From IMG/VR virus record IMGVR_UViG_3300030109_005647, positions 64,001 to 128,000 of that record: DNA of 64,000 nucleotides; one strand, written 5' to 3'. The stretch's first letter is position 1; each line of letters begins with the position of its first letter. The position numbers and the translations under genes are program-made. This document shows positions 31,811 through 58,332 of the stretch, piece after piece. The notes beneath the pieces were generated by a model, which was given only the letters and a program-made list of their open reading frames with translations, did not search any database and was not told where the DNA came from. Source of the stretch: a virus.

Positions 31811-32215
31811 TTAATTCTGTATAGTTTCGACTAGTGTTACCGAATCTGTATTTTTCGTGCCTTTTATAAGATATTCAAATCTCACAGACAATAGATTTCT
31901 TTGTCCTGTTGTTGATATTTCGCGGTTAGAACCTCTATTAACCTGTAGATCAATTATTTGTATTTCTGGTAAATAGGTTGCAACTTGACTTCTTATTCTT
32001 TCCTCTATATCGAATTCAGGTGTGTTTTCAAATAGATAGTTTCTTAATCCAACCCCATAATCTGGAATCATAATACGTTCACCAGGAGCAGTAAGCATTA
32101 ACATTTTTACCTTTTGTTTTGTATTTTCTTTGGCAGTTTTTGTTAAACCGTAAAAAAGATCTGTTCTGTCTTCGAGTAAAGGTAACTTTGCATCTAACCC
32201 TATAGTGCCTTGCAT
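31811..32215 (-). CDS. Baseplate gp25/GPW-like sheath initiator
   Basis: VKMLMLTAPGERIMIPDYGVGL..LFE hallmark. Confidence 0.9.
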   Translation of the reverse strand: MQGTIGLDAKLPLLEDRTDLFYGLTKTAKENTKQKVKMLMLTAPGERIMIPDYGVGLRNYLFENTPEFDIEERIRSQVATYLPEIQIIDLQVNRGSNREISTTGQRNLLSVRFEYLIKGTKNTDSVTLVETIQN

Positions 32216-43224: not shown

Positions 43225-44077
43225 TTTTCAACCTCTCAAAGCACTTATTTATTCCTTCTTTAATTGCAACTGATGTTTGCCAGCCAAGTTGTTTTATTTT
43301 ATCAGTCTTAGCACACGTAAATAAAACATCTCCCTTTCTCTTTCCAACATAATCGAACCTAACACTTGGTAGGTTTTTTTGTACTATTTCTTTAATTTCA
43401 TTTAAAGAAATATTTGTCCCGGTGCCAATGTCGTAATGCTCGCCATTAAAATCACCCTTTCTTGTCATCGCAAAAATGTTTGCACGCACAGCATCAGAGA
43501 CATGAAGCATGTCTCTACACTGATCTCCCTCTCCTGTGATATACGGATTTACGCCCTTTCTTATACTGTCCATCCAGTTGGCAATTGCAGTGCAATAAGG
43601 ACCGTCTACAGTCTGATCTTCCGAGTATACATTAAAATATCTAAGAGATACTGTATCTAAATCATATAAATCTGAATATAGTTTGCATTCCATCTCGGAT
43701 ACTAATTTTTGTAAAGCATAGGGACTCGTAGGTCCATTACCATTACCCACAACAGAAGAAGAGCTAGAATAGATAACCCTTTTTGCTCCAACTTGTTTAG
43801 CAAAATCTAAAACACAGCTTGTGCATAAAACATTATTTTCCATCGTTATAACAGGGTTTTCTACACTATAAGCAACGCGTGGGAAACAAGCTAAATGAAA
43901 AACATATTCTGGTTTGAAATTATAGTAATGAGGGTGAAATTTATCCTTGAGGTCTTTTTTTATGTCATGACCTTCTACCAGATCGATACCTAATACCTCG
44001 TGACCCGCTTCTTCTAGCGCTTTAACGAGATGGCTTCCTATGTATCCGCGATGACCAGTAACCAAACATCTACTCAT
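43214..44077 (-). CDS. NAD-dependent nucleotide-sugar epimerase/dehydratase (extended SDR)
   Basis: LVTGHRGYIG, SSSSV, YALQK (YxxxK), LRYFNVY, RDMLHVSD. Confidence 0.9.
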   Translation of the reverse strand: MSRCLVTGHRGYIGSHLVKALEEAGHEVLGIDLVEGHDIKKDLKDKFHPHYYNFKPEYVFHLACFPRVAYSVENPVITMENNVLCTSCVLDFAKQVGAKRVIYSSSSSVVGNGNGPTSPYALQKLVSEMECKLYSDLYDLDTVSLRYFNVYSEDQTVDGPYCTAIANWMDSIRKGVNPYITGEGDQCRDMLHVSDAVRANIFAMTRKGDFNGEHYDIGTGTNISLNEIKEIVQKNLPSVRFDYVGKRKGDVLFTCAKTDKIKQLGWQTSVAIKEGINKCFERLKNEK

Positions 44078-44095
44078 TTAACTCTCCGTGTTTCT

Positions 44096-44103
44096 TAAAT
44101 ATT
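44096..44103 (-). promoter_or_regulatory. Candidate promoter variant AATATTTA (overlaps a TATAAT)
   Basis: Intergenic; TATTTA ends 19 nt before the 44077 start. Confidence 0.4.
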
Positions 44104-44125
44104 ATACATCATCTCATTTAATAAT

Positions 44126-44950
44126 TTAATTAATTTTAAATTGATGTGGCTTATCCCAAAAACCTTTAGCTTCGACCATTCTCTCTTCTTCGTACACCAG
44201 CTTCTTATTCAAAACATACTCTTCAAAATTTATTATTGGATAAACATCTAGCTTTGTTTTTTTAGATGCATTAAAAAATTTAACGCTTTTGTCTTTTTCT
44301 AAAAACTTTTTATATGCAAGAGAATGTATATTTCTCATCTGATTATTTGCTTTGTATACTTTATTTTCTGGTATATCAGCCCTATAAGATTTATCAAAGT
44401 GGTTAGGATCGCTGGTTGAGCCTCTATCTGCCGTCCAGCCTAAATCGGCGCCTACAAAAATAATTTCATTAAAGCCCATATAATAAGATAACTGTAGTGC
44501 TAAACTTATAGTAGTTGCGCTCTTGTCAATCCTGTCAACAACATTGGTTGAAAAGCAGCTTTCTAGAATATTTCCAGATGTATCCGGCTTGTTTTCTGAC
44601 ATAGAATCAAACCATTTTATTTGTGGATATTTATTTTTAGGATCGATAGTTGGTTTAAAGATTCGTGCTATAAAGGATGTTGTTTTTGGATCAGACGCGG
44701 ACCTTCTTACTGATTCTGTCCAAGCAGAACCCCACACTGGGTTTCTAACATTAGTAGAAGAAAATAAATAATAAGTTGGTTTCCATTTTGGATTCTTATC
44801 ATAAATAAGAGAAATTCTATTCATAGCTATTGTTGTTTCATTTTTTAACAAATCTAAATTAGTTTCAGCTAGACTTGGACCATTTGCTATGATAAAAACC
44901 CTCTGTGCAGTGTGCCTGTCTTTAAATTGTTCAAATACTGTATTTTTCAT
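44126..44950 (-). CDS. DUF115/Maf-GT42-like (CMP-ulosonate-type) glycosyltransferase domain protein
   Basis: FIIANGPSL, IAMNRI, ALQLSYYMGFNEIIFVGADL, DPNHF. Confidence 0.72.
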   Translation of the reverse strand: MKNTVFEQFKDRHTAQRVFIIANGPSLAETNLDLLKNETTIAMNRISLIYDKNPKWKPTYYLFSSTNVRNPVWGSAWTESVRRSASDPKTTSFIARIFKPTIDPKNKYPQIKWFDSMSENKPDTSGNILESCFSTNVVDRIDKSATTISLALQLSYYMGFNEIIFVGADLGWTADRGSTSDPNHFDKSYRADIPENKVYKANNQMRNIHSLAYKKFLEKDKSVKFFNASKKTKLDVYPIINFEEYVLNKKLVYEEERMVEAKGFWDKPHQFKIN

Positions 44951-44951
44951 T

Positions 44952-45647
44952 TTAACTTTCCTCTGTGAACAACATTACTGTTCTTTTATAGTTTAAACCA
45001 CTTTTTCTATCCTCATAAGTGTGATAACCGTTTATCCCATTTTTTTTCATTCTATCGATTACATACTTTTTTGTTGGCGTATAATGCAATCCGTTCCACT
45101 CATTAGATTTAGAATTGCCACCATGGTATTTGTATGTTGATTCTTCACTATCTAAAGTTTTAAATTCTAATATTATGTTTTTGCCTATTGCAGCTAGCTT
45201 ATCTAAACAAGCATCCATATTTGGTACACGATGTATTAAACCCAAACCAAGAACTATATCAAATTTATTCTTTTCGTCTAATTTGTATAAGTCAAACACT
45301 TCAAATTTAGTGTTTTCAAGACCATAAACATCTTTAGCAAAATTTGCTCTTTCTATTCTTGTATGATCGGGGTCGATGCCGTAAACCTTTGACATTTCTT
45401 TTTTCGCTGACATTATAGAAAAATATCCGTCACTGCATCCTACATCAATCATTGTCTTTCCTTTTGGAGATAGGCTTTCTACAATTGGATCTAATCTTTT
45501 CCATTTGTTTGTATTGAACCCAGGGCTGTTCACTTTATTGCTGACGGTTTTTATTCCCCCTGGAAACTCGTATAAATGATTCCAAGATTTTTCTAATTTA
45601 AATTTTTTTACTTTTTCTTTTATTTCTTCCTTTGTGTATTTAGACAT
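44952..45647 (-). CDS. Class I SAM-dependent methyltransferase (CmoB/DUF1698-like)
   Basis: MIDVGCSDGYFS, GIDPD, FDIVLGLGLIH. Confidence 0.85.
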   Translation of the reverse strand: MSKYTKEEIKEKVKKFKLEKSWNHLYEFPGGIKTVSNKVNSPGFNTNKWKRLDPIVESLSPKGKTMIDVGCSDGYFSIMSAKKEMSKVYGIDPDHTRIERANFAKDVYGLENTKFEVFDLYKLDEKNKFDIVLGLGLIHRVPNMDACLDKLAAIGKNIILEFKTLDSEESTYKYHGGNSKSNEWNGLHYTPTKKYVIDRMKKNGINGYHTYEDRKSGLNYKRTVMLFTEES

Positions 45648-46353
45648 TTAAATAAACCTCCATAATTTTTTGTGCCTCGGCAGATGTTAGAAATCCACTT
45701 CTGACGGACGCCCAAGACGATGCATCTTTACTATCGTATACTTCCAAAAAGTCACTCTTTTCTCTACCTTGTAACTCTCTTGGTTTTGCAAATTTTACGC
45801 TCTCATAAGATACAGGTAACTCTTGATCTGGAAACAAAGCAAAGAACACAGAAGTGCGATGATTACCACTAACAATATAAAATTTTTTTAAATTATTTTT
45901 TTTAATAAAGTATCCAGTGATATTTCCTTGTTTGCGATCAGGAAATTGTTTTGGACTATATCCGTTTTCTCTAAAAGAATCAATTAGTTGCTTTATCTTT
46001 AAAACTTGTTTATAAACAAAATCTTCTGTTTCAAAGCTTATAAACGCAATATCAGTCATTGTTTTTAAGGGTTTTTTGTAAATCCAAGGTAAAAATGGAT
46101 TAGTCACTGTATAATTTTTCAGTTTATCAACCGCATTGTATAAACTATAAATTGAATCTGGAGAATATGAAATGTAATGTTTATACAGTGGGCTTTCCTT
46201 GTAATAAGAAGCGGCATTAAACTTAGTTTCTGCGCTCTCCATATCGATAATTTGTTTTGCTGTTCTATAACAGGGGTTTTTTTCAACACCGATCGGTATT
46301 CTACTTAAATTACAAACATCGGATTTTTTTATTTTAATTAATTGACTATTCAT
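45640..46353 (-). CDS. Hypothetical protein with a ParB/Srx-like motif
   Basis: LIDSFRENGY..FYIVSGNHR (cf. DGxHR). Confidence 0.55.
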   Translation of the reverse strand: MNSQLIKIKKSDVCNLSRIPIGVEKNPCYRTAKQIIDMESAETKFNAASYYKESPLYKHYISYSPDSIYSLYNAVDKLKNYTVTNPFLPWIYKKPLKTMTDIAFISFETEDFVYKQVLKIKQLIDSFRENGYSPKQFPDRKQGNITGYFIKKNNLKKFYIVSGNHRTSVFFALFPDQELPVSYESVKFAKPRELQGREKSDFLEVYDSKDASSWASVRSGFLTSAEAQKIMEVYLNV

Positions 46354-46357
46354 TTTT

Positions 46358-47422
46358 TTATTTTAGATAACTACTAAGCTTGTCATTTCTTTTTATAGAA
46401 ATTGCGGCGCAAGATGGATATGGATTAGTGGCAGCAAAATCATTAATTATAATCCTCTTACTATGATTACAATTAGAAATAATTGTCTTGTATGTTATAC
46501 CTTTTTCTTTTAAGTATTCTTTAACCACGCTTAAGTATTTTTCTGGTCGAGCCGTCATAAATATAATTTCGTTTCCTGTATCTGACAAGCGTTTTAAGAT
46601 TTCAACATTTTCTTCTATAGGTTTGAAGTAGTTGGACCAGTTCCTAGAGCCATATTTGCCACAATTTTCCAGTATAACACCGTCTATATCAAAAACATAT
46701 GTATTATGTTTTTCCATTTCTTTGTACCACTCATTTGCAGTTCCCCAATCTACATAACGATCAGCTTCAACATATTCAAAAATATGAGAATTACAAATTA
46801 TCAAATAAGATATGACATGGCTGACGTATATTTCATTTTCATGCTTATATACATCACTGGAACATATATTTTCATATGCTCGAACAAAATCTATTGAGTC
46901 AACACAATATACACCCAAGCAAATTATGTTAGATACCATCTCTTTTTCTAGAATATCAACAATAACATCATCATCGTTTTTAATGATAAAACTCTTTTGT
47001 TGCAATCTATCCACCTGTACATTGTGATCTATAGTTAAACCTACAATGTGATCTTTTTCTGGTAGGTAATTTATTTCGACTACGCAGTCAGAGTCTTTTA
47101 TTGTTAGCTGTCCAGATAGATTTGCCTGCTGAATGGTCTTATAAACCGTTTCAGCAGAGCAAGTGGTAGGCTTTTCTAGTATTATAATCTCAACCGTATC
47201 CCCAAAAGCCTGATTTAGAATAATATCTGCTTCATAAACATCACAGTGTTCTCTCAAAACCGTAATTATTGTTTTCTCATATCTTTGATAATTCGAAGAG
47301 GTCAAAACCTTTTCAATCATTAAATGTCCAGATGGATGTGTAAGCAACCATTTTGGTTTCATGTTGGGATACCTGCTTGACTTACCAGCGGCAGGAATAA
47401 GTAGGGTTTTTTGTTTTAACAT
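46358..47422 (-). CDS. Sugar-phosphate nucleotidyltransferase fused to a HAD phosphatase
   Basis: LLIPAAGKSSRY..KPKW, DSD, DWGT; C-terminal FDIDGV, MTAR, IIND. Start at ATG 47422. Confidence 0.82.
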   Translation of the reverse strand: MLKQKTLLIPAAGKSSRYPNMKPKWLLTHPSGHLMIEKVLTSSNYQRYEKTIITVLREHCDVYEADIILNQAFGDTVEIIILEKPTTCSAETVYKTIQQANLSGQLTIKDSDCVVEINYLPEKDHIVGLTIDHNVQVDRLQQKSFIIKNDDDVIVDILEKEMVSNIICLGVYCVDSIDFVRAYENICSSDVYKHENEIYVSHVISYLIICNSHIFEYVEADRYVDWGTANEWYKEMEKHNTYVFDIDGVILENCGKYGSRNWSNYFKPIEENVEILKRLSDTGNEIIFMTARPEKYLSVVKEYLKEKGITYKTIISNCNHSKRIIINDFAATNPYPSCAAISIKRNDKLSSYLK

Positions 47423-47423
47423 T

Positions 47424-48221
47424 TTATGGTATACCAAATATCTTACCAAGATATTGTAATCTATTTTGTAAGTATTTTAAAGTTGTTCCATTTGAATATG
47501 GAATAATTCTAAGTAGATTTAAGACTAAAAGTCTTTTTGAAGCTTCAATCTCTTCAAAGGACATTTCTTGTAGCATCTTGTCATACAAATGTATTGTCTT
47601 TATTAAAGGCTTGTCCATGTTATGACGCCATGACCAATCTAAGACGACATCTTGCATTATTTTTGAATAGTCAACATACTTTGTCTGTATAAAAGAGTCA
47701 AGAAAATCAATGAAATATATTTTATTTCTATAGATTAATATATTTTCAAAAGTAAGATCGCCATGATTTTGCGATACCGGCGTTTTTGACCAGTCATGCT
47801 CTTTACAATAACTATAATATTTATTTGTATAAGAGGGTAGTCGAGAAGTTAATGAACTTAACTTCTTGTTTATTAGGGGTGTTATATCTTTAGTGTTGTC
47901 AACTTTTTCTTGTAGATACTTGTAGATTTTATCAAAAATAGGCATTATGTTATTTATGCTGCTCAAGGATACATAGTTGTGCATCGGTGCGCCGCGAATA
48001 AATTCCATATCGAAATAAAAAAGATTGTTAGTATAGCCTGATTTGTAAACAATTGGCGTGTGGAAATCACTATGATTAAACGATTGTTGCTTTTCCATCT
48101 GTTTGAATAAACGAGAATTGTATTCCTGAGAGGAAGATACTTTTCGAATAAACTTTTTTCCGGCTTCCTCTTGAAGATAAATGTGGCATCCAGAGTGCCC
48201 GTTCATTTTTTTTATTATCAT
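47424..48221 (-). CDS. APH/choline-kinase-like phosphotransferase
   Basis: GHSG loop, IRK, HGDLTFENI, FIDF. Confidence 0.8.
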   Translation of the reverse strand: MIIKKMNGHSGCHIYLQEEAGKKFIRKVSSSQEYNSRLFKQMEKQQSFNHSDFHTPIVYKSGYTNNLFYFDMEFIRGAPMHNYVSLSSINNIMPIFDKIYKYLQEKVDNTKDITPLINKKLSSLTSRLPSYTNKYYSYCKEHDWSKTPVSQNHGDLTFENILIYRNKIYFIDFLDSFIQTKYVDYSKIMQDVVLDWSWRHNMDKPLIKTIHLYDKMLQEMSFEEIEASKRLLVLNLLRIIPYSNGTTLKYLQNRLQYLGKIFGIP

Positions 48222-48238
48222 CTGTGCCTTGTTTGATG

Positions 48239-49168
48239 CTATCTTCCTTGCGGTCTGTCATAATTAAGATAATTCAACGAATTTAGATCTAAATCTTTTT
48301 CAAAATATAGGTACCTTATTGCTGTTTTAACTTTTGATTTCTTAATATCAGGAGGATGGTTTACAATTTCATTACTCCAGTTTTTAATCCAGCCCTGCTT
48401 TTCAGAGGTATGAATAGGATCTCCGTGTTTCCAAGTGCCTTTCCATTTGTTATAGAAATAGTTCCAAGCAGTTTTTTTATATATACCACCTCTACTGTTA
48501 TGCCATATTTTTTGTTGTTCTGCGTCATCGGGCTTTCTTTTTATGATGCTTTCACCCTTTTGTTCTACTGTAACAAAATTACGATCCTCAAAAGACTCAA
48601 TCGGATAATCTGGCTCATGGTTTAATTTAATGCCATGGACTATATCGTTAATAGAAGATTTCTCTTTATTAAAGATCAACGCTCTCAAAAAATAGTCTGT
48701 CTCTTTGTATTGTGCAGGTAAGTTTTCATCCCACATGCCAATTTTTTTGATTGCCTCTGGTCTGTAAGCAGTGACCGTATCTCCACATAGCCCTGTGACA
48801 AAACTATAACCTTTTTTATTAAAAAGTGCATCTAGATTCGAACAAAAATTTGGGTGGACCACGGCATCATTTTGTAGTGTCACTAGTATCTCTGTATCTG
48901 GATTTTTTAAGTCCACAATGCCATTAATAAAAGCTTGATTATAATTCTCAGATACGTTTCCATTTGACCAATCAGGTCTTAGTACGTTATGAAGAACGTT
49001 AACTTTTTCTTTAAACTCTGGGTCTAGGTTAAATTCAGAGTGATTGTTTATGATATTAACTTCTGTATTTTTTACAGTTGAAAAGTCAGATTTAAACAAT
49101 TTACGCAGCGTATCATTGAGCACTTCACATCTTTTGTATGTAACAATATAAACTTTTATTTTTTTCAT
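48239..49168 (-). CDS. GT-A (GT2-like) glycosyltransferase
   Basis: VYIVTYKR, IINNHS, LQND, IGMWDE...ETDYFLR. Confidence 0.7.
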   Translation of the reverse strand: MKKIKVYIVTYKRCEVLNDTLRKLFKSDFSTVKNTEVNIINNHSEFNLDPEFKEKVNVLHNVLRPDWSNGNVSENYNQAFINGIVDLKNPDTEILVTLQNDAVVHPNFCSNLDALFNKKGYSFVTGLCGDTVTAYRPEAIKKIGMWDENLPAQYKETDYFLRALIFNKEKSSINDIVHGIKLNHEPDYPIESFEDRNFVTVEQKGESIIKRKPDDAEQQKIWHNSRGGIYKKTAWNYFYNKWKGTWKHGDPIHTSEKQGWIKNWSNEIVNHPPDIKKSKVKTAIRYLYFEKDLDLNSLNYLNYDRPQGR

Positions 49169-50142
49169 AAAATATTACTATCTTTTAGTTGTTCCAAACA
49201 GCCACTCCAGTCAGAGAAACGAAAAGCTTTGTCGTCAATATAAGCCACCGCTCTAGGCTTTTCAGCAGTAACTTTTGCGACATATTTTGATGCATTATGT
49301 TTTTCTAGCCACTCCCATATCATTTGCGTTCCAGTTTTTCCATTTACCAAGCCGCGATCAGATTTCGCTTTGCAGGTATAAATAATAACATTATATTTTT
49401 CAGCCAATGTTGCTAACGCCTCTATCGCTCCGTCAACCGGTGAATCATAAATTGTTCCATCATAATAACCCTTTGAGCATTGGTGGACCACTCCATCAAA
49501 ATCGACACCAATATTTACTTGCTCATCAGGATACGAGTATTCCCTGATTTTAGATCTCCAATGTTTAGCGTTTTTAATATCATCTGGAGAATTTTTGCCG
49601 ATAGGAGGGCACACGTTTCCAGATCCATGGGTGAGTTCATATGTCAGCAAAAGAGTTAGCACTTCTGAGGTATGATAATATTCTGCGCCTAAGATGACCT
49701 GTGTTAAGTTTGGGATCTGTATTTTGATAGGTCTGCTAGTGATCATTGCTATATGCATATTGTTATCACCAGCCCACTGTAGGGCTTTAATAATGTCAGT
49801 TGAGCTTCCAGAAGAAGAAACACCCAAAACCAAAGATTTTTTCATTTGAGTTTTAGTTTTTGTAGTGGTTCTTGCTCTGAGCCAGTCAACCATCCACTGT
49901 TCAAAACTCGTATCATTAATTAAAGAAGTTGCGACGATAGCAGAGCCAGGGCAAATTGCGTTTTTTGTGCCATTTGACAATCTAGTCATATCTACTGCTG
50001 CGTGATCCGCAATGGCTAAATTACCGCCATGTCCTAATACATATATATCATTAGACGAATTGAATTTTTTTTGAAGCTCAGTCCAATCGCCTGAATTAAC
50101 GACTTGTACAAATTTTTCTCCAATATTCTCAAAATCAAGCAT
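49165..50142 (-). CDS. GmhA-like SIS sugar-phosphate isomerase fused to a HAD phosphatase
   Basis: LGHGGNLAIADH, GVSSSGSS (SIS); GVDFDGV, YTC, KP...YIDD (HAD). Confidence 0.8.
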   Translation of the reverse strand: MLDFENIGEKFVQVVNSGDWTELQKKFNSSNDIYVLGHGGNLAIADHAAVDMTRLSNGTKNAICPGSAIVATSLINDTSFEQWMVDWLRARTTTKTKTQMKKSLVLGVSSSGSSTDIIKALQWAGDNNMHIAMITSRPIKIQIPNLTQVILGAEYYHTSEVLTLLLTYELTHGSGNVCPPIGKNSPDDIKNAKHWRSKIREYSYPDEQVNIGVDFDGVVHQCSKGYYDGTIYDSPVDGAIEALATLAEKYNVIIYTCKAKSDRGLVNGKTGTQMIWEWLEKHNASKYVAKVTAEKPRAVAYIDDKAFRFSDWSGCLEQLKDSNIL

Positions 50143-50815
50143 GTTGTATTTCCTTGTATGTTTCTATTAAAGCTATGGTGTCCATACCCATAGCAATTAT
50201 ACCATAACCGGTATACTTTTTAATTTGTTTTTTAACATCTTTTGGTATGTGAACAGCCATTTTTTCTATTGGAATTTGCTTTTTTATCTTTTCTACTGCC
50301 GACATATATTTGGGATTATCAAAATCCGCAGGACAGCCTAAACTAGCTGAGAGGTCGTAAGGACCAATCATATAGTAATCAAAGCCAGTTATGTCTTTAA
50401 TGTTTTTTACGCCGAGCGAAGTTTCTATCTGGGCAATCAATATTGGAGATTCAGAAACAATATCCTTGTTTAGACCCCATCTATTTTGTCTCACCAAACC
50501 CAAGCCTCTTAAACCTCCATATTTTGGGTATTTACACAAACTATGGATCTCTTCAACTTCAGATTTTTGTTCGACTGTGGAAAATATTATACCTGATGCT
50601 CCTGCGTCCAAACAATATTTTGCCATGAACTTATCTTGTTTACCAAGCCTAACGAAACATTTTTTATTATTTGAAGTTATAACCTGTATACAGCTATACA
50701 AGGTTTCTTTATTATAACAAGCATGTTCAGTGTCTAGAACAACGCCATCTAGATCATTTTGACAAAGAATATCGGATATAATTGTGGAGGGTATCTGCTG
50801 CCAAGCTAATTTCAT
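50135..50815 (-). CDS. HpcH/HpaI class II pyruvate aldolase
   Basis: LDTEHA, FVRL, LDAGA, QIET, IGPYDLS. Start at ATG 50815 (ATGA overlap). Confidence 0.88.
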   Translation of the reverse strand: MKLAWQQIPSTIISDILCQNDLDGVVLDTEHACYNKETLYSCIQVITSNNKKCFVRLGKQDKFMAKYCLDAGASGIIFSTVEQKSEVEEIHSLCKYPKYGGLRGLGLVRQNRWGLNKDIVSESPILIAQIETSLGVKNIKDITGFDYYMIGPYDLSASLGCPADFDNPKYMSAVEKIKKQIPIEKMAVHIPKDVKKQIKKYTGYGIIAMGMDTIALIETYKEIQHA

Positions 50816-51465
50816 ATGTTCACCATAATATTTGCTAGCTTCCAATCATCTTCTATATCTATATCTAAACTTTCTTTTTGTTCTGTTGTATAGAAATATG
50901 GTTGAGATCCTATTCTGTTCCCTGTTTTTGTCATTTGACCAGCAAAAAACATATAAAATAAAGAGTTCTCCTCATAATAACAAGGAAGATCTTGAGTTTG
51001 CTCAAGTTTCATTGGATTATGATTTACAGGGCACATTCCATAACCTTCTTTCCTCCACAATCTAGTATGTAAAGCGTTGCATGAAACGACAGAATCATAA
51101 TTACCATCTATTAAAATTCTTTTGGCATCATTTAGTGTATTTACGTTTAAAAATGGAGAAGTTACGTGAACTTGGCATATGATATCATTCTGTTGACAAT
51201 ATTTTTTTACAAAATTTGCTATCAAATCGCAAACTGGTGTTTCATCTCCCAAAAGGTGAGACTGTCTAGCATACGCGGTGACATGTTGTAGTTCTTTATC
51301 TGCTGAGACCTGTTCAAGTATTTCTTCACTGTCAGTGTCAACAAAAACTTCAAAACTTTTTAATTTATAGAGTGTGTGTTTATATAATGGTAAATCTTTA
51401 AATATTCTAAAGTTTTTACCAGGCACACGTTGTGAGTTTTTTTTTATAGGAATAAAAATTTTCAA
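50812..51465 (-). CDS. CMP-ulosonate synthetase (NeuA/KdsB-like cytidylyltransferase)
   Basis: IPIKKNSQRVPGKN, VDTDSE, VTSPF, EENS, LDIDIEDDW. Confidence 0.88.
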   Translation of the reverse strand: MKIFIPIKKNSQRVPGKNFRIFKDLPLYKHTLYKLKSFEVFVDTDSEEILEQVSADKELQHVTAYARQSHLLGDETPVCDLIANFVKKYCQQNDIICQVHVTSPFLNVNTLNDAKRILIDGNYDSVVSCNALHTRLWRKEGYGMCPVNHNPMKLEQTQDLPCYYEENSLFYMFFAGQMTKTGNRIGSQPYFYTTEQKESLDIDIEDDWKLANIMVNI

Positions 51466-52226
51466 TTAACAGCCTCTTTAAATAAGCTCTTATCTAGATC
51501 TTTTAAGTTTAATATTTTTTCTAAAGTGCCATCTAGTTTTACAATTGGATGATCAATTAAGGTCTCTTTAGCGTGTTTCCACATATTTTTTTGATTGTGT
51601 CTTTTTGAAGAAAAAGCCATGTGTGCAAACTCATCTTCCGTAACTTTTTTTTCTTTTTCTATTCCTGACTTACACCCAGGTATAAAACCGTCGAGATAAA
51701 AACTAAATCCATATATGGACAAAGATTTTGGTTTAAAGCTAAGTAGGTCATATATTGCTAAGTAACCAGTATTTGGTCTGCTTTTTACTTTCTTAGCAAG
51801 TTTTGTATGAAAGTCATGTGATACGATTCTTACAGGCATAACTGATTGTATCTTTTTTACTGTTTTTTTATTCACCATGTAATGAAATTTTGTTTTCTTG
51901 GAAACACCAGAATAAGACGACTCTGGAGGAGCCACCAAAAAATCAACGCCATATTCATTTTTTAATTCGCTTGCATTTATTTTTCCTGCGTTCTGCGCTG
52001 TTTCAATCAAGCAAGAATATAGAATATCACACTTAACACCTATGTCATTGGGGTATTGTCTGGTTGTTTCTATACTCCTATTGATTCTAACGACTAAATC
52101 ATTTTTATCAATCTCATCGCCTAAATTTTTACCCATCATATATTTGGCAGGACCAACAATAGCTATATTCTTATCGCGAACAAGCTCACTGAATTTAAAA
52201 TTATTATCTTCGTTTGATATTTTCAT
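51462..52226 (-). CDS. GT29 sialyltransferase-like glycosyltransferase
   Basis: Sialylmotif L-like IAIVGPA..GDEIDKNDLVVRIN..DIGVKCD; motif S-like RPNTGYLAI..IYGFSF; VS-like His in KRHNQ. Confidence 0.75.
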   Translation of the reverse strand: MKISNEDNNFKFSELVRDKNIAIVGPAKYMMGKNLGDEIDKNDLVVRINRSIETTRQYPNDIGVKCDILYSCLIETAQNAGKINASELKNEYGVDFLVAPPESSYSGVSKKTKFHYMVNKKTVKKIQSVMPVRIVSHDFHTKLAKKVKSRPNTGYLAIYDLLSFKPKSLSIYGFSFYLDGFIPGCKSGIEKEKKVTEDEFAHMAFSSKRHNQKNMWKHAKETLIDHPIVKLDGTLEKILNLKDLDKSLFKEAVN

Positions 52227-52800
52227 TTTTTTTAAAAATTCCAATTTTGTTTTCTACCAATTGTCCAGAAATTAAATTTTCTTTGCCAAAGAAATGGTAT
52301 GCGTATTTACTCTCAATATGTCTACCCATATCATCCATAACACATATGCCACCATCTTTTAATAAATTCCAAGCAGCAAAAATACTTTTCATCCTACCAG
52401 GACCCTTATAAGGTCTTGGTGGGTTATGACCTAACGGTCCATCTACGAATATCATGTCCCAGTTTTCTGATTTAATGCTTTTTGGTAATGCCATTTTTAA
52501 TTTTCTTAAATCAAATCCTATTTTCTCATGGTCTTTTGCCTCTGTGTTGTATTTTACAGTATGTATCTCCAATCCAGATCCGTTGAATTTTGAGATCCAC
52601 TCCTCATCATCTTCTAGGAAAGCTGTACGACCACCCTCATTTATCTTTTGCCAAACAAATGCGTCGTGTCCTAATCCAAAAACTAAAAAGTTACAGGGAG
52701 ATAATAAATTTAACTCTTTTGCGACAGCTAAGTACTGATTTGTCGACATCAAACCATAACCTTTTATCTTCATCTGCTTAATTAATTGATTATAACTCAT
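52204..52800 (-). CDS. DUF579 (GXM/IRX15-like) polysaccharide O-methyltransferase
   Basis: SPCNFLVFGLGHD..W..IN.GGRTAFLEDDEEWI, WDMIFVDGP, PGRMKSIFAA closely follow plant glucuronoxylan methyltransferase motifs. Confidence 0.82.
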   Translation of the reverse strand: MSYNQLIKQMKIKGYGLMSTNQYLAVAKELNLLSPCNFLVFGLGHDAFVWQKINEGGRTAFLEDDEEWISKFNGSGLEIHTVKYNTEAKDHEKIGFDLRKLKMALPKSIKSENWDMIFVDGPLGHNPPRPYKGPGRMKSIFAAWNLLKDGGICVMDDMGRHIESKYAYHFFGKENLISGQLVENKIGIFKKNENIKRR

Positions 52801-52802
52801 TG

Positions 52803-53546
52803 TTAATATTCCATAAAATTCTTTTTTACTACTTCTAAGGCTTGTTCTAGCGTTTGTATTTCATAAGTACCCTGGTTGATTCTAGTGTCTGCGTGCATAT
52901 GATATATTCTAGGGGTTAGGTGCTCTTCGCCAAAAGTGTGATGAAACTTTCTTTGCTTTTCTCTGTTTGCCTTACTTCTAATGTTATATTCTACAGGAAA
53001 AACATAAAATTGAAGACCGTTTTGTATAGCCTCCCACAGTGATACTCTAAAGGATGGTTGATCCCATGGACAATGTTGATAATATTTGTAAAAATTTTCT
53101 CTCCATTTTTTAAACAAAGTGGTGACTTTATCGCTTTTATTAAACACCATAACACCAGTATTTACCTCAGAAAAAGAATAAGGAATGTCTCCATACTCTG
53201 GTATGGCTTCTGAATACTTTTTTCTTTTCCTAGCTAGATCATGAGTAGCCGCAAGATCAAAGTTGTCTAATAAATCATACATATCTTCTATATTATAATC
53301 AATAATCGTATCTGTATCCAGGAACAGTGTTTTTTCATATGGTGACATTATAATATAATCAATTTTAGGTCTAAGATGTTTTGCTCTTATTAAAACACAC
53401 TTATCTACATATTCAGAATCGACTGGTTTATCTACAAATGCCGTAATATGTAACTCTGGATTGTGTTTTTTTACAGATTCTGCAGATATCAACATTTCTT
53501 TTAAAAAATTTTCTCCAAAAGCAATATACAATACGCCTCTTTTCAT
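52803..53546 (-). CDS. GT-A glycosyltransferase (GT8/nucleotide-diphospho-sugar transferase-like)
   Basis: LFLDTD (DxD), VNTGVM, WDQPSF, EYN. Confidence 0.78.
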   Translation of the reverse strand: MKRGVLYIAFGENFLKEMLISAESVKKHNPELHITAFVDKPVDSEYVDKCVLIRAKHLRPKIDYIIMSPYEKTLFLDTDTIIDYNIEDMYDLLDNFDLAATHDLARKRKKYSEAIPEYGDIPYSFSEVNTGVMVFNKSDKVTTLFKKWRENFYKYYQHCPWDQPSFRVSLWEAIQNGLQFYVFPVEYNIRSKANREKQRKFHHTFGEEHLTPRIYHMHADTRINQGTYEIQTLEQALEVVKKNFMEY

Positions 53547-54541
53547 TTTTTTATGCTCCTAATGTTAAAATAAAGTCTCTCTGCCCAAGAAATAGGATTA
53601 TATAATCTATCAAATTCTTCTTTTGCGTTCTTCGCAACTTTTGTTCTGACTTTTGGGTCTTTATATTTTAATATCCCTTTTATCCAGCTTTGCTTATTAA
53701 AAGCAATGGTCCCGCATCTTGGGTCTCCCAATATGTGGAAATTACTTGGGGTTAAATCAGTCACTATAGGTATTCCTAGTTGATGAAAAACAAATGACCT
53801 GCCGGCATTTGATTTATTTTTCATACGAATTACGTGATCAGTAGAGTGCATACCATAATGGTCATTTATTGGAAAGTTATGATTTTTCATATCAATGTAA
53901 GTTACATTTGGTACAATTCCAACGTCACAAGTCATTAAGTTTTGTTTGATTGTATCCAAGCCCCACTTCTTGATAGCGATATTTTTAATGTTTGGTCTGC
54001 CATATTGCCAATTTATATTCTCGTGAGTCGTGACGACTAATAATTCAATGTCACAAATCTTATCAATATACTCTAAAGCCGATTTTAAATGGGGCTCGAA
54101 TTTACTTAGGTGAGGGTAATGCCCGTGATATCCAATTCTTAAGACATCTTTCTCAATATGTTCTTTTTGTTTACAATTTTGGAACATATTTTCTATGAGG
54201 GGAAATAAAAATACATTTTCATAAGTTGACAAACTATCCATTTCTTCTAATGAGCCAACTATGACAAAATCAATATTTAAATTTTTCTTTTCAGCAGATA
54301 AGTTAATAACGCCAACAGTTCTTTCAGGATATTTTGTTTTTATTTTTGAAGCAGCTTCTGCATCTTCTTTACCACAAATGATAATATCATGATCTTCAAC
54401 CCTGCTATTTGGATTGGCTATCTCTGATTGTATCCCTGCTTGTTTAAAATAATTGTTTAAATCGTGAACCCATATTCTATACGAGCCAACATTTATGAAA
54501 GGTGTGGTGCAATAAAATAATATTTTTTTTTCTTTTGACAT
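53543..54541 (-). CDS. GT-B glycosyltransferase (divergent)
   Basis: GSYRI, IGYHG, CDVGIVP, KSNAGR..LGIPIVT. Confidence 0.65.
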   Translation of the reverse strand: MSKEKKILFYCTTPFINVGSYRIWVHDLNNYFKQAGIQSEIANPNSRVEDHDIIICGKEDAEAASKIKTKYPERTVGVINLSAEKKNLNIDFVIVGSLEEMDSLSTYENVFLFPLIENMFQNCKQKEHIEKDVLRIGYHGHYPHLSKFEPHLKSALEYIDKICDIELLVVTTHENINWQYGRPNIKNIAIKKWGLDTIKQNLMTCDVGIVPNVTYIDMKNHNFPINDHYGMHSTDHVIRMKNKSNAGRSFVFHQLGIPIVTDLTPSNFHILGDPRCGTIAFNKQSWIKGILKYKDPKVRTKVAKNAKEEFDRLYNPISWAERLYFNIRSIKK

Positions 54542-54545
54542 GATT

Positions 54546-55436
54546 TTATTTTTTAATAAACTCTTTGTATTTATTTGATACTTCTTTCATATCATAACTC
54601 ACTTCATGTATATTTTTAATTTTTTTATCAAAACTAAGGACTGGTGGTTTGTATAATTCAACAGGCTTAAAATCCCAATCTTTTTCCTGTATTACAATGG
54701 CATCCAAACCAGCTATTTCTTTTGTGCCGCCGGCGGAAGAGCAGATAATTTGGCATCCACTAGCCCTTGCATCAACAACAACATTAGGGCAGTGATCAAG
54801 CCAAGCTAAATGCAGAAAATATTTTGATCTCTTGTATAAAGAAATTAAGTTAGGTACGGATATCTCTCCAACATAAAATATTCTTTCACTTTTTTGTATT
54901 TTTTTATCTGATTTTCCTGCGATTACTAGGCAATCTTTTTCAGAGGAGTGTTCTAAAAAATATCTAATATTGTCGTCTAATCTTTTATGTGGACGCCATG
55001 ATGCGGCGCAAGACCAAACATTTTCGAATTTATCTATTTTTGGATGACTCAGAGGTGTAACAGTTTCAATAAAATCTGTGTCAGCGCCATTGTGGATTAC
55101 AGCAGAATATTCATGCTCTCCGAAATATTCTGTTGTTAGCTTTTTATTAAAATTAGATTGAAATATAACACCGGTGGAATGGTGATATGTTTTTTCAATA
55201 TTTTGATTTTGTATTTTATACGGTTGAGATAAATTAAAGTATATCCCATCTAATCTCTGAAAAAGAGGAATTTTGCTTTGAAAATCTCTTGTTTCTATAA
55301 AGCATAGTCTAGCATCGGCGGTAGAGGTTTTGTTAAATGTGACACCATTTTTTTTGCCATATTTAACTAATTTTGATGCGAAATGGTTAGGTCCCGAAGC
55401 GCTTTGAAGGTTTACGTTTTCTAGTTGTATATTCAT
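54546..55436 (-). CDS. GT4 glycosyltransferase
   Basis: SGPNHF, IHNGAD, RPHKR, DHCPNVVVDARASGCQII..GGTKE. Confidence 0.85.
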   Translation of the reverse strand: MNIQLENVNLQSASGPNHFASKLVKYGKKNGVTFNKTSTADARLCFIETRDFQSKIPLFQRLDGIYFNLSQPYKIQNQNIEKTYHHSTGVIFQSNFNKKLTTEYFGEHEYSAVIHNGADTDFIETVTPLSHPKIDKFENVWSCAASWRPHKRLDDNIRYFLEHSSEKDCLVIAGKSDKKIQKSERIFYVGEISVPNLISLYKRSKYFLHLAWLDHCPNVVVDARASGCQIICSSAGGTKEIAGLDAIVIQEKDWDFKPVELYKPPVLSFDKKIKNIHEVSYDMKEVSNKYKEFIKK

Positions 55437-57052
55437 ATTCTTTTATATGGAGTTTTACTCCTGATTTTGTCTGCCAATTCAGATTGTTTTTTTGCCTTAA
55501 TCTTATCTACACTTAAGGGGTTTTGTCTATTGTAAACATAAAGCGCTTCTGGTATATATCGTGATCTCTCTGCAGACATCTCTAATAGTGGCAACATTAT
55601 AGCTTGATCATAAGTCATTTCGAAATATTTACCGCTCTCTTTAAGATCTTTTTGATCTAACTTTTCCCACAGGCAATATTTAAAAGTTCTAAGATGTGAT
55701 GCTCGCCAACTGTCTTTTCTAAACGAATTATTTTTGATAATCTCCTCTGGGTATTCAGAAGGCTCTACGCCTCTTTGACCGGTTGGGTTATATATATAAC
55801 TTCCATAAGTTAATAGTGTATCTGTCGTGTATTCATCACTTAACCTAGATAAAACCGCCGTAGATGATAACCAATCATCGCCATCCATCAATATTACGAT
55901 ATCCTGTTTTTTTATACTCTTCTCATTTAAGATGTAAGCAATGTTTCCCAAAGCATACTTTTTTTCTTTATTTTGTATTAATTCAAATCGGGTATCATCT
56001 CTTATCATTTGCTTGATTATATCTGAGGAGTTATCAGTCGACATATCATCAACCAAATAACACTTAAAATTAGTATAACTTTGACGCCTAATACTGTTTA
56101 TACATTTGTCAATCCACTTTTCACAATTATAAAAAGGAACAACAAAAATAAATTTATCATTTTCAATATGTGTTTCCTTTGGCTCCGGTAAAGATAAATT
56201 TTCAAATGCTAATTTTTCTATTTGTGTCCAGAATATTTCTGTTCGTTTTCTCAAATAATATAAAGTGTTTTCTCTTGTTTGGAACCAAGGCTCGTCTTTG
56301 TGTTGAACATTTTCATTTAAAATCAACTCACAGTCCAATAATTTGGCTTCTATTGTCATCCTTGGGCAAGTATCACCAGCATTTGGAAAAAATATAATTC
56401 CTTTGGAATTTGCTAGCTTTTGTAAAAGTTCCTTATGACTCAAACCCCAAACCAATTCATACTCTAAGTTATTCTCTTCAGCATATGCTTTGGATTCGCT
56501 TACGCCTTTAATCCAAGAAGGTGAATTTAAAATTAAATATTTATTATTTTTGTTTTTTGTATCTAGAGAACAAATGTAATCCAATGTTTCATTTGAAAAA
56601 ACAGAGCTTAAGACTTGACTCCTATCGTTATCTAAAAATGGAAATTTATTTCTATAATGATCAAATTGATTTCTAGACATCCACCAAGCCATCTTTGCAT
56701 TGTTTAAAAATATTGAGGTTATTTTTCCTTGACTTGTTAATTCGCAATTACAAGTTTCACCCTCTAATATGTGTTTACCTGGGGATCTATATTTACAATA
56801 TTTATAATCATACTCCAGAACAGAGTAATTTAAATTTTTAGCAGCAAATAAAAGGACTTGTTGCGATGCGTTGGCAAAATTGCCAAAAATCCAAAAAGCT
56901 TTGGTATTTTTTTTCATTAATGAAATTAAGCGTGGATCTGAGGACAGCACCTTATTGCAAGGAAAATAAGATGCTTTAATCAATGCTTCAGTTGTTAACT
57001 CGGCGCCTCCCTCATAATGTTCAACAAATAAATCGGATACAAAAAAAATCAT
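55433..57052 (-). CDS. Fused GT-B (GT4-like) and GT2 glycosyltransferase
   Basis: GGAE..KG..DTCPRMTIEAKLLDC, then VVPFYN, VDDMSTD, MDGDD, YVYNR. Confidence 0.85.
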   Translation of the reverse strand: MIFFVSDLFVEHYEGGAELTTEALIKASYFPCNKVLSSDPRLISLMKKNTKAFWIFGNFANASQQVLLFAAKNLNYSVLEYDYKYCKYRSPGKHILEGETCNCELTSQGKITSIFLNNAKMAWWMSRNQFDHYRNKFPFLDNDRSQVLSSVFSNETLDYICSLDTKNKNNKYLILNSPSWIKGVSESKAYAEENNLEYELVWGLSHKELLQKLANSKGIIFFPNAGDTCPRMTIEAKLLDCELILNENVQHKDEPWFQTRENTLYYLRKRTEIFWTQIEKLAFENLSLPEPKETHIENDKFIFVVPFYNCEKWIDKCINSIRRQSYTNFKCYLVDDMSTDNSSDIIKQMIRDDTRFELIQNKEKKYALGNIAYILNEKSIKKQDIVILMDGDDWLSSTAVLSRLSDEYTTDTLLTYGSYIYNPTGQRGVEPSEYPEEIIKNNSFRKDSWRASHLRTFKYCLWEKLDQKDLKESGKYFEMTYDQAIMLPLLEMSAERSRYIPEALYVYNRQNPLSVDKIKAKKQSELADKIRSKTPYKRI

Positions 57053-58332
57053 GCGTAGTTTGAAATTTTAGAGAATAGATCATCTATTTCTTCATCTGAA
57101 ATACTTTCGACAAAATACTCATCAATAATTTCTTTAAATTTATTAATTTGTTTTTCACTATTAAATTCTTCTAGAATCCAATCTTGAAGTTTTTTTGCTT
57201 GAGATTTAAATCGTCCATAATCTTTATAAACTTCTCTTAGCTTTATTTTACAAGAACCCTGCTGTGGATATGCCCACATAGAGTCTTTCTGTATCACTCC
57301 ATCCCAAACAGCGTCTGGGGGGACCGGCTGAAGGTCATAATCAATTCTAGCAAAATGAGGTTTGTTTTTCTCTCTACCTTTTTTATCTTTTGTCGGTTTA
57401 TAGAGAAAATCCAAGTGACCAGACCAATCTGTTGCTAAAACAGGTAATCCACAATATGCAGCCTCAAAAAGTGGTAGACCAAACCCCTCTCCGTGTGTTA
57501 AGCTTATTAACGCATTAATGCTCTTGTGAGAATACAAACAATGCATCTCTTCATCTGTTAGATCACCGTGAAGAAGATAAACTTTACATTCTCTATCTTT
57601 ATACTGTGGTCTAGAAAGAAGTTTTTCTAATTCTTGAGTTACTGCATTTTTATCTAATATACTGCCGCCTCTAACAAATGTTTTAACAACTAGTCCGACC
57701 TCTGGATTGTCTATAAATTCTTCAACAAACCACTTCACCGTCGAGCCTAAATTTTTGCGTGGACCCCACTGTGCGACTGTAAGAAAATTAAATTTAGTGT
57801 TTAAATCTAGATCAAGATCTGAAGTTAAATTATTTAGAATATCTTCTTTTACCGGGTAATGAACAATATCAACTTTTTTAGCACATTTTAATATTAAAGG
57901 TTGATTTGTATTTCTGTCTATTGCCTCGTATATAGTATTTACTAAACCAGCTTTTGAATGCTGAGATATGGTGACTACTCTATCCATCTCATTGCACTTT
58001 TGTAACCATATCGGTGCTACTTTTGTTGTTTCAATGCCCGCTGTAACTCCAATGTTGATGGGAGCCATTTTTTGCCACTCATTTGGAATTGTAACCTGCA
58101 CGGACATATCATATTGCCCTCTTTCTTGGCTATATAATGCTGTCTTTTTAATAATTTTATCCATCCAGTCTCTTTCTTCTGAATTTTCCCATATCCAAGA
58201 AGATTTGCCCCAGTTAACCGGGAGCAAATAGATGTCTAGACCTTTAATTTCCCTAAGAACGCGCAACACAAAACGACAATGTTCGCCGTATCCAGTTCGT
58301 GTTAATGCTGGTCCTCTTACTAGAACTTTCAT
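57049..58332 (-). CDS. GT4 glycosyltransferase
   Basis: RTGYG, PRKN, GEGFGLPLFEAAYCGLPVLAT..SGHLDF. Start at ATG 58332 after GGAGG. Confidence 0.9.
   Translation of the reverse strand: MKVLVRGPALTRTGYGEHCRFVLRVLREIKGLDIYLLPVNWGKSSWIWENSEERDWMDKIIKKTALYSQERGQYDMSVQVTIPNEWQKMAPINIGVTAGIETTKVAPIWLQKCNEMDRVVTISQHSKAGLVNTIYEAIDRNTNQPLILKCAKKVDIVHYPVKEDILNNLTSDLDLDLNTKFNFLTVAQWGPRKNLGSTVKWFVEEFIDNPEVGLVVKTFVRGGSILDKNAVTQELEKLLSRPQYKDRECKVYLLHGDLTDEEMHCLYSHKSINALISLTHGEGFGLPLFEAAYCGLPVLATDWSGHLDFLYKPTKDKKGREKNKPHFARIDYDLQPVPPDAVWDGVIQKDSMWAYPQQGSCKIKLREVYKDYGRFKSQAKKLQDWILEEFNSEKQINKFKEIIDEYFVESISDEEIDDLFSKISNYA

Follow-up and report, generated by a model that had tools for sequence, protein, structure and literature searches.

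Can a phage make an ulosonic acid activated with cytidine monophosphate (CMP) through an aldolase rather than through a synthase that depends on phosphoenolpyruvate (PEP)? This question is raised by four consecutive genes in a 64,000-nucleotide stretch of viral DNA, hereafter the window, which comprises bases 64001-128000 of the IMG/VR virus record IMGVR_UViG_3300030109_005647 (138,595 bases, completeness 78% by CheckV). The genes encode a fusion of a SIS isomerase domain with a HAD phosphatase domain (SIS-HAD), an aldolase of the HpcH/HpaI family (HpcH), a CTP_transf_3 cytidylyltransferase and a GT29-like glycosyltransferase. In the known pathway to 3-deoxy-D-manno-octulosonic acid (Kdo), namely KdsD-KdsA-KdsC-KdsB, an isomerase, a condensing enzyme, a phosphatase and a CMP-transferase act in turn, and a PEP-dependent synthase is, to our knowledge, common to all textbook routes that lead to Kdo, sialic, pseudaminic and legionaminic acids; searches of genomes for ulosonic acids are keyed on NeuB and KdsA. 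Our results revealed that the four-gene module is real and conserved. We hold it an evenly balanced question whether it is a self-contained, PEP-independent aldolase route to a CMP-activated 3-deoxy-2-ulosonic acid, a reading that rests on homology and gene neighbourhood; what is most likely to lie behind these genes is a marine-phage aldolase route with a much wider bacterial counterpart.

The four genes had been predicted to overlap at 49165-52226; in fact they overlap as described and span 49165-52244 (Table 1), the former end coordinate being the ATG at 52226, and the overlaps between successive genes are 8, 4 and 4 bases, as would fit translational coupling. For HpcH the ATG at 50815 is the likely start, because the homologues as well as the family consensus start at query residue 11-12. 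The assignments made in the original prediction, i.e. GT29, NeuA/KdsB-like cytidylyltransferase, HpcH and SIS-HAD, stand as well, three of them by Pfam passes and the SIS and HAD domains by the fold of an AlphaFold2 (AF2) model together with the HAD motifs. To judge from their sequences, all four enzymes look catalytically intact.

The enzyme on which the proposed route turns is HpcH. It matches Pfam PF03328 (HpcH_HpaI) with 70.3 bits against a cut-off of 25 over profile positions 15-219 of 221, i.e. the whole TIM-barrel domain, and its best PDB matches are YfaU 2vws (7.5e-20) and HpaI 4b5s (1e-19). Residues H41, R66, E141 and D164 align with the EHA, VRP, QIET and GPxDLS motifs of both structures and are invariant across 20 homologues; in HpaI the corresponding residues are the catalytic His, the Arg for the pyruvate enolate and the Glu/Asp metal ligands. 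The protein fails the NCBIfam equivalog cut-offs of HpaI (91.9 vs 368.8 bits), GarL (80.3 vs 406.75 bits) and RhmA (72.7 vs 441 bits). A homologue was found in 39 IMG/VR loci, most with 43-67% identity and the three weakest with 29-34%, while in GTDB, with one genome per species, the best 80 of at least 587 matches are just 29-38% identical. Moreover, a FastTree tree of 110 HpcH sequences places the window and 32 viral rows in one clade with support 100, apart from the cellular groups. Metagenomic protein clusters number 979 for HpcH and 1164 for SIS-HAD, the best being 60-90% identical and mostly from marine surveys; a tblastn search of HpcH against phages found only two unannotated Staphylococcus phage records with 34% identity.

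The cytidylyltransferase, the sole PF02348 gene of the record, matches this Pfam family (CTP_transf_3) with 56.7 bits (cut-off 22.6) and fails the NCBIfam equivalog cut-offs of both PseF (74.5 vs 205.7 bits) and KdsB (16.9 vs 155.2 bits). Its best PDB match is the murine CMP-N-acetylneuraminic acid (Neu5Ac) synthetase 1qwj (8e-14), and the alignment takes in residues 9-212 including the N-terminal nucleotide loop and the C-terminal S-x-D-I-D motif. By these comparisons the enzyme is to be classed as NeuA/PseF-like, nearer to CMP-Neu5Ac synthetase and PseF than to KdsB. The GT29-like protein matches Pfam PF00777 (Glyco_transf_29) with 35.1 bits (cut-off 23) over residues 26-180, and its AF2 model has a predicted local distance difference test score (pLDDT) of 92.8. 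Among the Foldseek matches listed, ranks 1-21 are all animal GT29 sialyltransferases (ST8SiaIII, ST6Gal1, ST3Gal1, ST6GalNAc2), the top ones having E values of 1.3e-7 to 1.9e-5 and template modelling (TM) scores of about 0.4-0.5. With sialylmotifs L, S, III and VS defined as we take them to be, the alignment with ST8SiaIII 5bo6 contains an L-like (VGPAKYM..G.EID..D.VVRIN) and an S-like (PNTG...IYGF) stretch, and motif VS may be represented by an invariant S-K-R-H-x-Q; no counterpart of motif III was recognised.

The SIS-HAD protein consists of a GmhA-like sugar-phosphate isomerase domain (residues ~1-175), a disordered linker and a small capless HAD phosphatase domain (~205-325). It scores 19.7 bits with Pfam SIS, under the cut-off of 25, and 30.1 bits with NCBIfam gmhA (TIGR00441), where the cut-off is 209.45; in a profile search of the PDB five GmhA entries rank first, with a best E value of 4.6e-8. 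In an AF2 model built from a 16-sequence alignment (pLDDT 79), the SIS domain aligns with GmhA 1x92 at a VIA-align Z of 20.0 (root-mean-square deviation 2.7, 172 aligned), other SIS enzymes reach a Z of about 17, and Foldseek gives GmhA 5i01 with a TMt of 0.74; on this model the SIS fold of the N-terminal domain is confirmed. For the HAD domain, which found no HAD match in the Pfam scan, the model aligns with HAD structures at a Z of 9-10.4 over about residues 203-325. Invariant in the 16 sequences are the HAD motifs DxD, K and DD (D214, D216, K295, D303, D304) as well as H38-G-G-N41, H47, S109-S-S-G112 and E160. When the SIS domain is aligned with GmhA, at about 18% identity, the His aligns, an Asp stands opposite the Glu that we take to be catalytic in GmhA, and the C-terminal His is not clearly aligned. 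The Atlas protein clusters of the fusion are 100% viral, and a tblastn search of SIS-HAD found only PNK-like or HAD phosphatases that match the HAD part alone.

How regularly is such an aldolase accompanied by a cytidylyltransferase? A hidden Markov model (HMM) from 14 diverse CTP_transf_3 sequences was searched within 8 kb on either side of HpcH in two samples, namely the best 80 of the at least 587 GTDB matches to two family-specific peptide patterns and the 39 IMG/VR loci. Among the cellular loci are those of Bremerella sp. JC770 (L012), Phormidium sp. FACHB-1136 (L019) and Zoogloeaceae bacterium G21618-S1 (L024). Of the 80 cellular loci, 72 have a CTP_transf_3 gene, which lies within 3 kb of HpcH in 65, within 300 bp in 36 and on the strand of HpcH in 69; of the 39 viral loci, 32 have one. 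All ten matches in a spot check are PF02348 by Pfam, and the base rate is 2-6 PF02348 genes per genome of 1.0-4.9 Mb. In cells as in phages, CTP_transf_3 is linked with this HpcH subfamily much more often than the base rate would give, and the 72 linked cellular loci span 16 named phyla; in this respect the neighbourhood survey supports the core idea of the original prediction. Six of the eight cellular loci that gave no match end within about 1 kb of HpcH at a contig edge, while L064 and L073 do not. Among the viral loci, tblastn with the proteins of the surrounding glycan island found the block GT29-CMPt-HpcH-SIS_HAD (CMPt for the cytidylyltransferase) syntenic in L083, L085, L094 and L099-L101, and in L081, L082 and L115 the same block interrupted by a pair of dehydrogenase genes; in L085 and L100 neither a kinase nor a nucleotidyltransferase stands beside it. 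When 25 distinct viral loci are considered, 16 have SIS-HAD (14 of them adjoining HpcH) and 20 have a cytidylyltransferase of the window's type.

The strongest argument for a single pathway comes from modules rebuilt in cells with other parts. In SAR86 (L021), a gap-free and co-directional run encodes a GmhA-like SIS_2 protein, an IMPase-family phosphatase, a D-2-hydroxyacid dehydrogenase (2-Hacid_dh), HpcH, a KdsB-like CTP_transf_3, which at 222 bits passes the NF003952 cut-off, and an ELM1-like protein. The Prochlorococcus locus L007, from a single-cell genome, encodes in a row SIS, which is 43% identical to that of the phage, a hydrolase of the HAD_2 type and HpcH; a KdsB-like gene abuts them, and further upstream are NeuB and a second, PseF-like cytidylyltransferase. 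In Opitutaceae (L070), a MptE-like protein, HpcH and a PseF-like cytidylyltransferase occur together, and NeuB was not found in the locus. Thus among these three and the phage loci three parts are swapped: the phosphatase is a fused HAD, a HAD_2 or an IMPase, the cytidylyltransferase varies in subtype, and the transferase is GT29-like, MptE-like or ELM1-like. The aldolase and the overall logic stay constant, and because the non-orthologous parts are exchanged around a kept aldolase, isomerase, phosphatase, aldolase and CMP-transferase probably serve one pathway. Another conserved cluster, seen in L024, L013, L014, L037, L042, L056 and L075, holds both NeuB and HpcH, in some cases with a single cytidylyltransferase; its order is NeuB, GNAT, an unknown gene, a PF01182 isomerase-like gene, 2-Hacid_dh, SDR, a FkbM methyltransferase, HAD_2, HpcH, a hexapeptide acyltransferase, a methyltransferase, SDR and a KdsB-like cytidylyltransferase.

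Is a conventional synthase present after all? The original prediction noted that NeuB and KdsA are missing from the window, and this extends to the whole record at its 78% completeness, where neither NeuB (PF03102) nor KdsA (PF00793) was found. Among 36 related viral records, four have NeuB and two of these four also a KdsA-family gene, while 32 have neither. Moreover, three of the four records that are at least 90% complete are without both genes (G032, G033 and G038, each 100%), and G038 carries the cytidylyltransferase, HpcH and SIS-HAD. In five cellular genomes the NeuB genes are located away from the HpcH loci. Two other candidates were tried and rejected: PF13714, which would stand for a PEP mutase/phosphonate reading, has no match at E <= 1 in the record, and a sialic acid lyase (DHDPS family) as condensing enzyme was not found in it.

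Along the proposed route, the GmhA-like SIS domain would turn a ketose phosphate into an aldose phosphate, and HpcH would join the pyruvate enolate to the aldehyde to give a 4-hydroxy-2-oxo (3-deoxy-2-ulosonic) acid. The HAD domain would strip the phosphate either before the aldol step, leaving a free aldose, or after it as KdsC does, and the NeuA/PseF-like enzyme would make the CMP-sugar; the phosphatase and the step dependent on cytidine triphosphate would pull the reversible aldol reaction forward. Finally, the GT29-like enzyme, and possibly a MptE-like protein too, would move the sugar to a glycan that the remaining island genes would build and that would sit on the host surface or on the virion. 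What we infer here comprises every chemical step, which substrate is used, whether the product is a C8, C9 or C10 acid, and what accepts it. The aldolase route of the original prediction is upheld in so far as the motifs are intact, HpcH is linked with CTP_transf_3, the modules are rebuilt elsewhere and the synthases are absent. Its order of isomerase and then phosphatase gains no preference: the evidence favours condensation of a free aldose no more than an order like that of Kdo synthesis, in which the aldose phosphate is condensed first and the phosphatase acts last. In Kdo and animal sialic acid synthesis the phosphatase acts after condensation. A C10 acid is possible because the SIS domain is nearest to heptose isomerases; the domain would then make D-glycero-D-manno-heptose 7-phosphate, which the aldolase would extend to a C10 3-deoxy-dec-2-ulosonic acid to be CMP-activated and transferred by the GT29-like enzyme. 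This version seems quite doubtful to us, as the SIS domain is only ~18% identical to GmhA, misses the gmhA cut-off and has Asp at the catalytic Glu position; the cytidylyltransferase and the transferase resemble enzymes for C9 sugars.

Several observations weigh against a self-contained aldolase route. Kdo or a nonulosonic acid could come from the host, and the record is 78% complete; NeuB lies within 8 kb of HpcH in 15 of the 80 cellular and 3 of the 39 viral loci. The cellular loci have 2-Hacid_dh in 52 of 80 and SIS in just 11 of 80, and therefore the chemistry and substrates in cells may differ from those of the phage, a hydroxypyruvate donor being one possibility that we infer ourselves. 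Since the cellular loci are the best 80 by two motif patterns, they represent one motif-defined subfamily, while the viral loci come from related phages and their synteny is partly shared descent. In the genome with L024 (G047), the cluster has two NeuB-like genes, HpcH and one cytidylyltransferase, and the whole genome has two PF02348 genes, of which the one outside the cluster is probably the housekeeping KdsB; with a single spare cytidylyltransferase, the aldolase product may therefore lack its own activating enzyme there. Such NeuB-bearing clusters, together with L003, where NeuB is directly upstream of HpcH, and with the finding that NeuB occurs somewhere in four of the five carrier genomes that were checked, fit an explanation that we consider rather unlikely, namely that HpcH has an accessory or tailoring role in a pathway of the conventional kind, whose ulosonic-acid backbone is made by the host or by a clustered NeuB/KdsA. 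The phage cytidylyltransferase might then activate a host-derived or modified sugar, and HpcH might reset the C4 stereochemistry by a retro-aldol/aldol reaction or make a side-chain precursor. However, near HpcH a CTP_transf_3 gene is five times commoner than NeuB (72 vs 15 of 80) and directly adjacent in 36, and several NeuB-positive loci (L003, L007, L010, L013, L023; G048-G051) have 2-3 cytidylyltransferases, as would fit two parallel pathways. Moreover, complete phage genomes have the cytidylyltransferase and HpcH without NeuB or KdsA, and the isomerase and phosphatase that recur as partners suggest de novo synthesis starting from sugar phosphates.

Two further facts tell against the aldolase route from the side of the isomerase: both its sequence profile and its fold place the SIS domain nearest to GmhA, and the nearest named Atlas clusters are bacterial SIS_2-HAD proteins called "heptose bisphosphate phosphatase" (score 0.78, a lead only). 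They speak for SIS-HAD as a bifunctional enzyme of the GmhA-GmhB type in a nucleotide-heptose pathway, together with the kinase and the nucleotidyltransferase-HAD (NT-HAD) fusion of the window, in which case HpcH and the cytidylyltransferase would be a separate unit acting on another aldehyde. All four activity types indeed occur within four genes of the window, and HAD-NTP_transferase fusions lie two genes from HpcH in loci of the L084 type. Yet the kinase has no homologue in the 119 loci or the 36 related viral records, and among 19 records with SIS-HAD, including our own and the complete G038, PfkB is found in one and GHMP in none. SIS-HAD adjoins HpcH in 14 of the 25 distinct viral loci, even without a nearby nucleotidyltransferase; the SAR86 and Prochlorococcus runs join SIS, phosphatase, HpcH and a KdsB-like gene without a kinase or a nucleoside diphosphate (NDP)-transferase; and the gmhA equivalog cut-off is missed widely (30 vs 209 bits). 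We thus regard this heptose explanation as unlikely. As phage glycan islands are mosaics and the gene content around the module differs among related phages, one should also consider that unrelated glycan genes, sharing no pathway, were brought side by side by chance in a hypervariable island, but the gene overlaps of 4-8 bases and a linkage found in 16 named phyla as well as in phages make this highly improbable.

As for the carrier, the gp25 baseplate-wedge gene, a muramidase/GDSL protein, open reading frames (ORFs) of 1045-3173 aa and a PIN-PhoH fusion mark the record as a large tailed phage. All long ORFs of the window are on the minus strand, and marine metagenome runs contain DNA near-identical to this phage, no RNA run being among those listed. 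A megablast of window positions 46000-55000 against cultured phages gave no match, and two structural ORFs searched against cultured phages gave no useful relative, none being close to this phage. The ORFs of 3173 and 1697 aa beside the gp25-like gene presumably encode fibre/baseplate proteins, and a 758-aa protein with N-acetylmuramidase and GDSL-lipase-like domains is probably a tail-associated lysin. The nearest cultured-phage relatives of the PIN-PhoH fusion are PhoH2-type proteins (34-38% identity) from large Bacillus, Arthrobacter and Xanthomonas phages.

Table 1. Features of the window discussed in the text, with positions counted from its first base
Feature	Position	Strand	Remarks
SIS-HAD fusion	49165-50142	-	325 aa
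HpcH/HpaI-family class II (metal-dependent) pyruvate aldolase	ORF 50135-50845; probable start ATG 50815	-	226 aa
CTP_transf_3 cytidylyltransferase, NeuA/PseF-like	50812-51465	-	217 aa, TTG start
GT29-like glycosyltransferase, sialyltransferase fold	51462-52244	-	254-260 aa, soluble form
Glycan island	42385-59600	-	~17 kb, ~19 co-directional genes; Pfam
UDP-glucose/GDP-mannose dehydrogenase-like ORF	42385-43224		279 aa
MptE-like/DUF115 protein	44126-44950	-	Pfam PF01973 37.7 bits (cut-off 34.6)
NT-HAD fusion	46358-47449	-	weak Pfam/NCBIfam HAD matches
Protein-kinase-like/APH-like kinase	47424-48221	-	weak Pfam/NCBIfam Bud32, CotS, APH matches
GT2-like protein	48239-49168	-	Pfam Glycos_transf_2 16.5 bits, below cut-off
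IRX15/GXM (DUF579)-family methyltransferase-like protein	52204-52800	-	Pfam PF21729 106.1 bits
GT8-like transferase	52803-53546	-	Pfam Nucleotid_trans 26.2 bits
332-aa protein	53543-54541	-	no Pfam family
gp25 baseplate-wedge protein	31811-32215		
ORF beside gp25-like gene	18642-28163		3173 aa
ORF beside gp25-like gene	32258-37351		1697 aa
N-acetylmuramidase/GDSL-lipase-like protein	38354-40630		758 aa
PIN-PhoH fusion	61834-63147		437 aa

The module lies inside a glycan island whose order is UGDH-like, SDR epimerase, MptE-like, methyltransferase, unknown, NT-HAD, kinase, GT2-like, the four-gene module, GXM-like, GT8-like, unknown, GT4, GT2, GT4 and GT4. The dehydrogenase-like ORF at its edge has the N-terminal and central domains without the C-terminal domain, and no continuation was seen in other frames. 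The MptE-like protein has a weak match to the NCBIfam WaaZ Kdo transferase (9.3e-6) and is a second candidate for a CMP-ulosonic-acid transferase; MptE-like genes are near HpcH in 13 of the 80 cellular and 9 of the 39 viral loci. The NT-HAD fusion and the overlapping kinase may form either a separate activation pathway or part of a heptose route, and the pair resembles a sugar or phospho-alcohol salvage-type activation pair. The GT2-like gene overlaps the SIS-HAD stop by 4 bases and has homologues of 42-63% identity in 11 of the 24 viral loci left after dereplication. Directly upstream of the GT29 gene is the GXM-like gene, whose tblastn homologues adjoin GT29 in L081-L083, L093, L102, L103, L108 and L115; DUF579 is a plant glucuronoxylan 4-O-methyltransferase family, here found in a phage, and the same island has UDP-glucose dehydrogenase-like and UXS-like SDR genes. 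The GT8-like gene and that of the 332-aa protein are kept upstream of GT29 in L081, L083, L085, L094, L099-L103 and L108.

Variation around HpcH in the related loci may be recorded here as well. In L084 (5456-6862), and similarly in L086-L092 and L116, a HAD_2-NTP_transferase fusion (468 aa) is followed by a TylF-like O-methyltransferase; in these loci, which belong to a second lineage of phages, the pair lies two genes upstream from HpcH. The HAD_2 HMM, built from two sequences, missed the L084 fusion that Pfam detects, so the HAD_2 counts are lower bounds. In L081, L084 and L113, HpcH is separated from a divergent SIS-HAD by inserted 2-Hacid_dh and SDR genes. In L085 (10733-14952), the module is followed downstream by genes for a sugar C-methyltransferase, a FdtA-like ketoisomerase, a sulfotransferase-like protein and a sugar N-formyltransferase, which look like a second, deoxy-amino-sugar pathway in the same island. 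In L013 (6034-7833), from a Nitrospira metagenome-assembled genome, a 600-aa ORF with a weakly CTP_transf_3-like N-terminus fused to a D-2-hydroxyacid dehydrogenase lies directly upstream of HpcH.

What would such a route mean? In open-access full texts (PMC Creative Commons and bioRxiv, without supplements), no HpcH/HpaI-type aldolase was found tied to a CMP-sugar, Kdo, 2-keto-3-deoxynononic acid (Kdn) or nonulosonic pathway, and GT29 was not found tied to marine phages. Higher-carbon (~C10) ulosonic acids have been seen by mass spectrometry (Kleikamp et al. 2020, PMC8157484; SugarBase preprint, 10.64898/2026.04.20.719630), and one of these two sources reports CMP-activated forms in Magnetospirillum gryphiswaldense; a biosynthetic route is described in the available part of neither. 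A Methanococcus is likewise reported to hold higher-carbon ulosonic acids. If the C10 version were true, it would give a genetic basis to these acids, for which mass spectrometry is so far the sole evidence and no pathway is known. More generally, the aldolase route would be found in many bacteria and marine phages, yielding CMP-ulosonic acids of various lengths without PEP. Its producers would be invisible to current searches, with at least 587 species genomes matching the subfamily patterns and, to judge from the metagenomic clusters, abundant marine phages among the carriers. The chain length would be set by the aldehyde acceptor and not by a NeuB-type pocket, opening a way to unusual C7-C10 acids; marine phages would carry a complete pathway fed by central metabolites together with a GT29-fold transferase, presumably remodelling host or virion glycans; and a PEP-free enzymatic route to CMP-sugars would become available for synthesis.

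In the following we compare the module with the known systems. With the catabolic 2-keto-3-deoxy-acid aldolases HpaI, YfaU (RhmA) and GarL, the phage HpcH shares the family, the aligned catalytic residues and a chemistry by which pyruvate and an aldehyde give a 4-hydroxy-2-oxo acid; however, it is only about 30% identical to them, belongs to none of the characterised equivalogs and has a distinctive W-Q-Q-I-P-S motif, and its gene stands among glycan genes with a cytidylyltransferase gene nearly always close by, a setting that is biosynthetic and not catabolic. Similarly, GmhA, the sedoheptulose 7-phosphate isomerase, is the best fold and sequence-profile match of the phage SIS, which has the G-x-G-G and S-S-S-G loops and the conserved His, and an SIS domain joined to a phosphatase recalls fusions of the GmhA-GmhB type. 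The differences are the low identity, the Asp in place of the catalytic Glu and the missed equivalog cut-off noted above, and also that the phage SIS-HAD comes without heptose kinase partners and is linked to an aldolase rather than to genes of the lipopolysaccharide core.

The NeuB/PseI/LegI nonulosonic pathways resemble the module in the NeuA/PseF-like CMP-transferase, the GT29-fold transferase and the MptE/Maf-like protein of the island, whereas the record is without a NeuB-family synthase, the PseF and KdsB equivalog cut-offs are missed, and the set of NDP-sugar dehydratase, aminotransferase and hydrolase was not found adjoining the module. The nearest parallel in logic is the Kdo pathway, where the same four steps are run and three of the four enzyme classes recur, i.e. 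a SIS-fold isomerase, a HAD phosphatase and CTP_transf_3, and some cellular modules even carry a KdsB-like enzyme above the NF003952 cut-off. In contrast to that pathway, the phage SIS is GmhA-like and without the CBS domains of KdsD, the HAD domain is not detectably KdsC-like, and the phage cytidylyltransferase is NeuA/PseF-like rather than KdsB-like. Above all, a class II pyruvate aldolase of the HpcH family takes the place of KdsA (PF00793), and therefore the donor would be pyruvate, not PEP.

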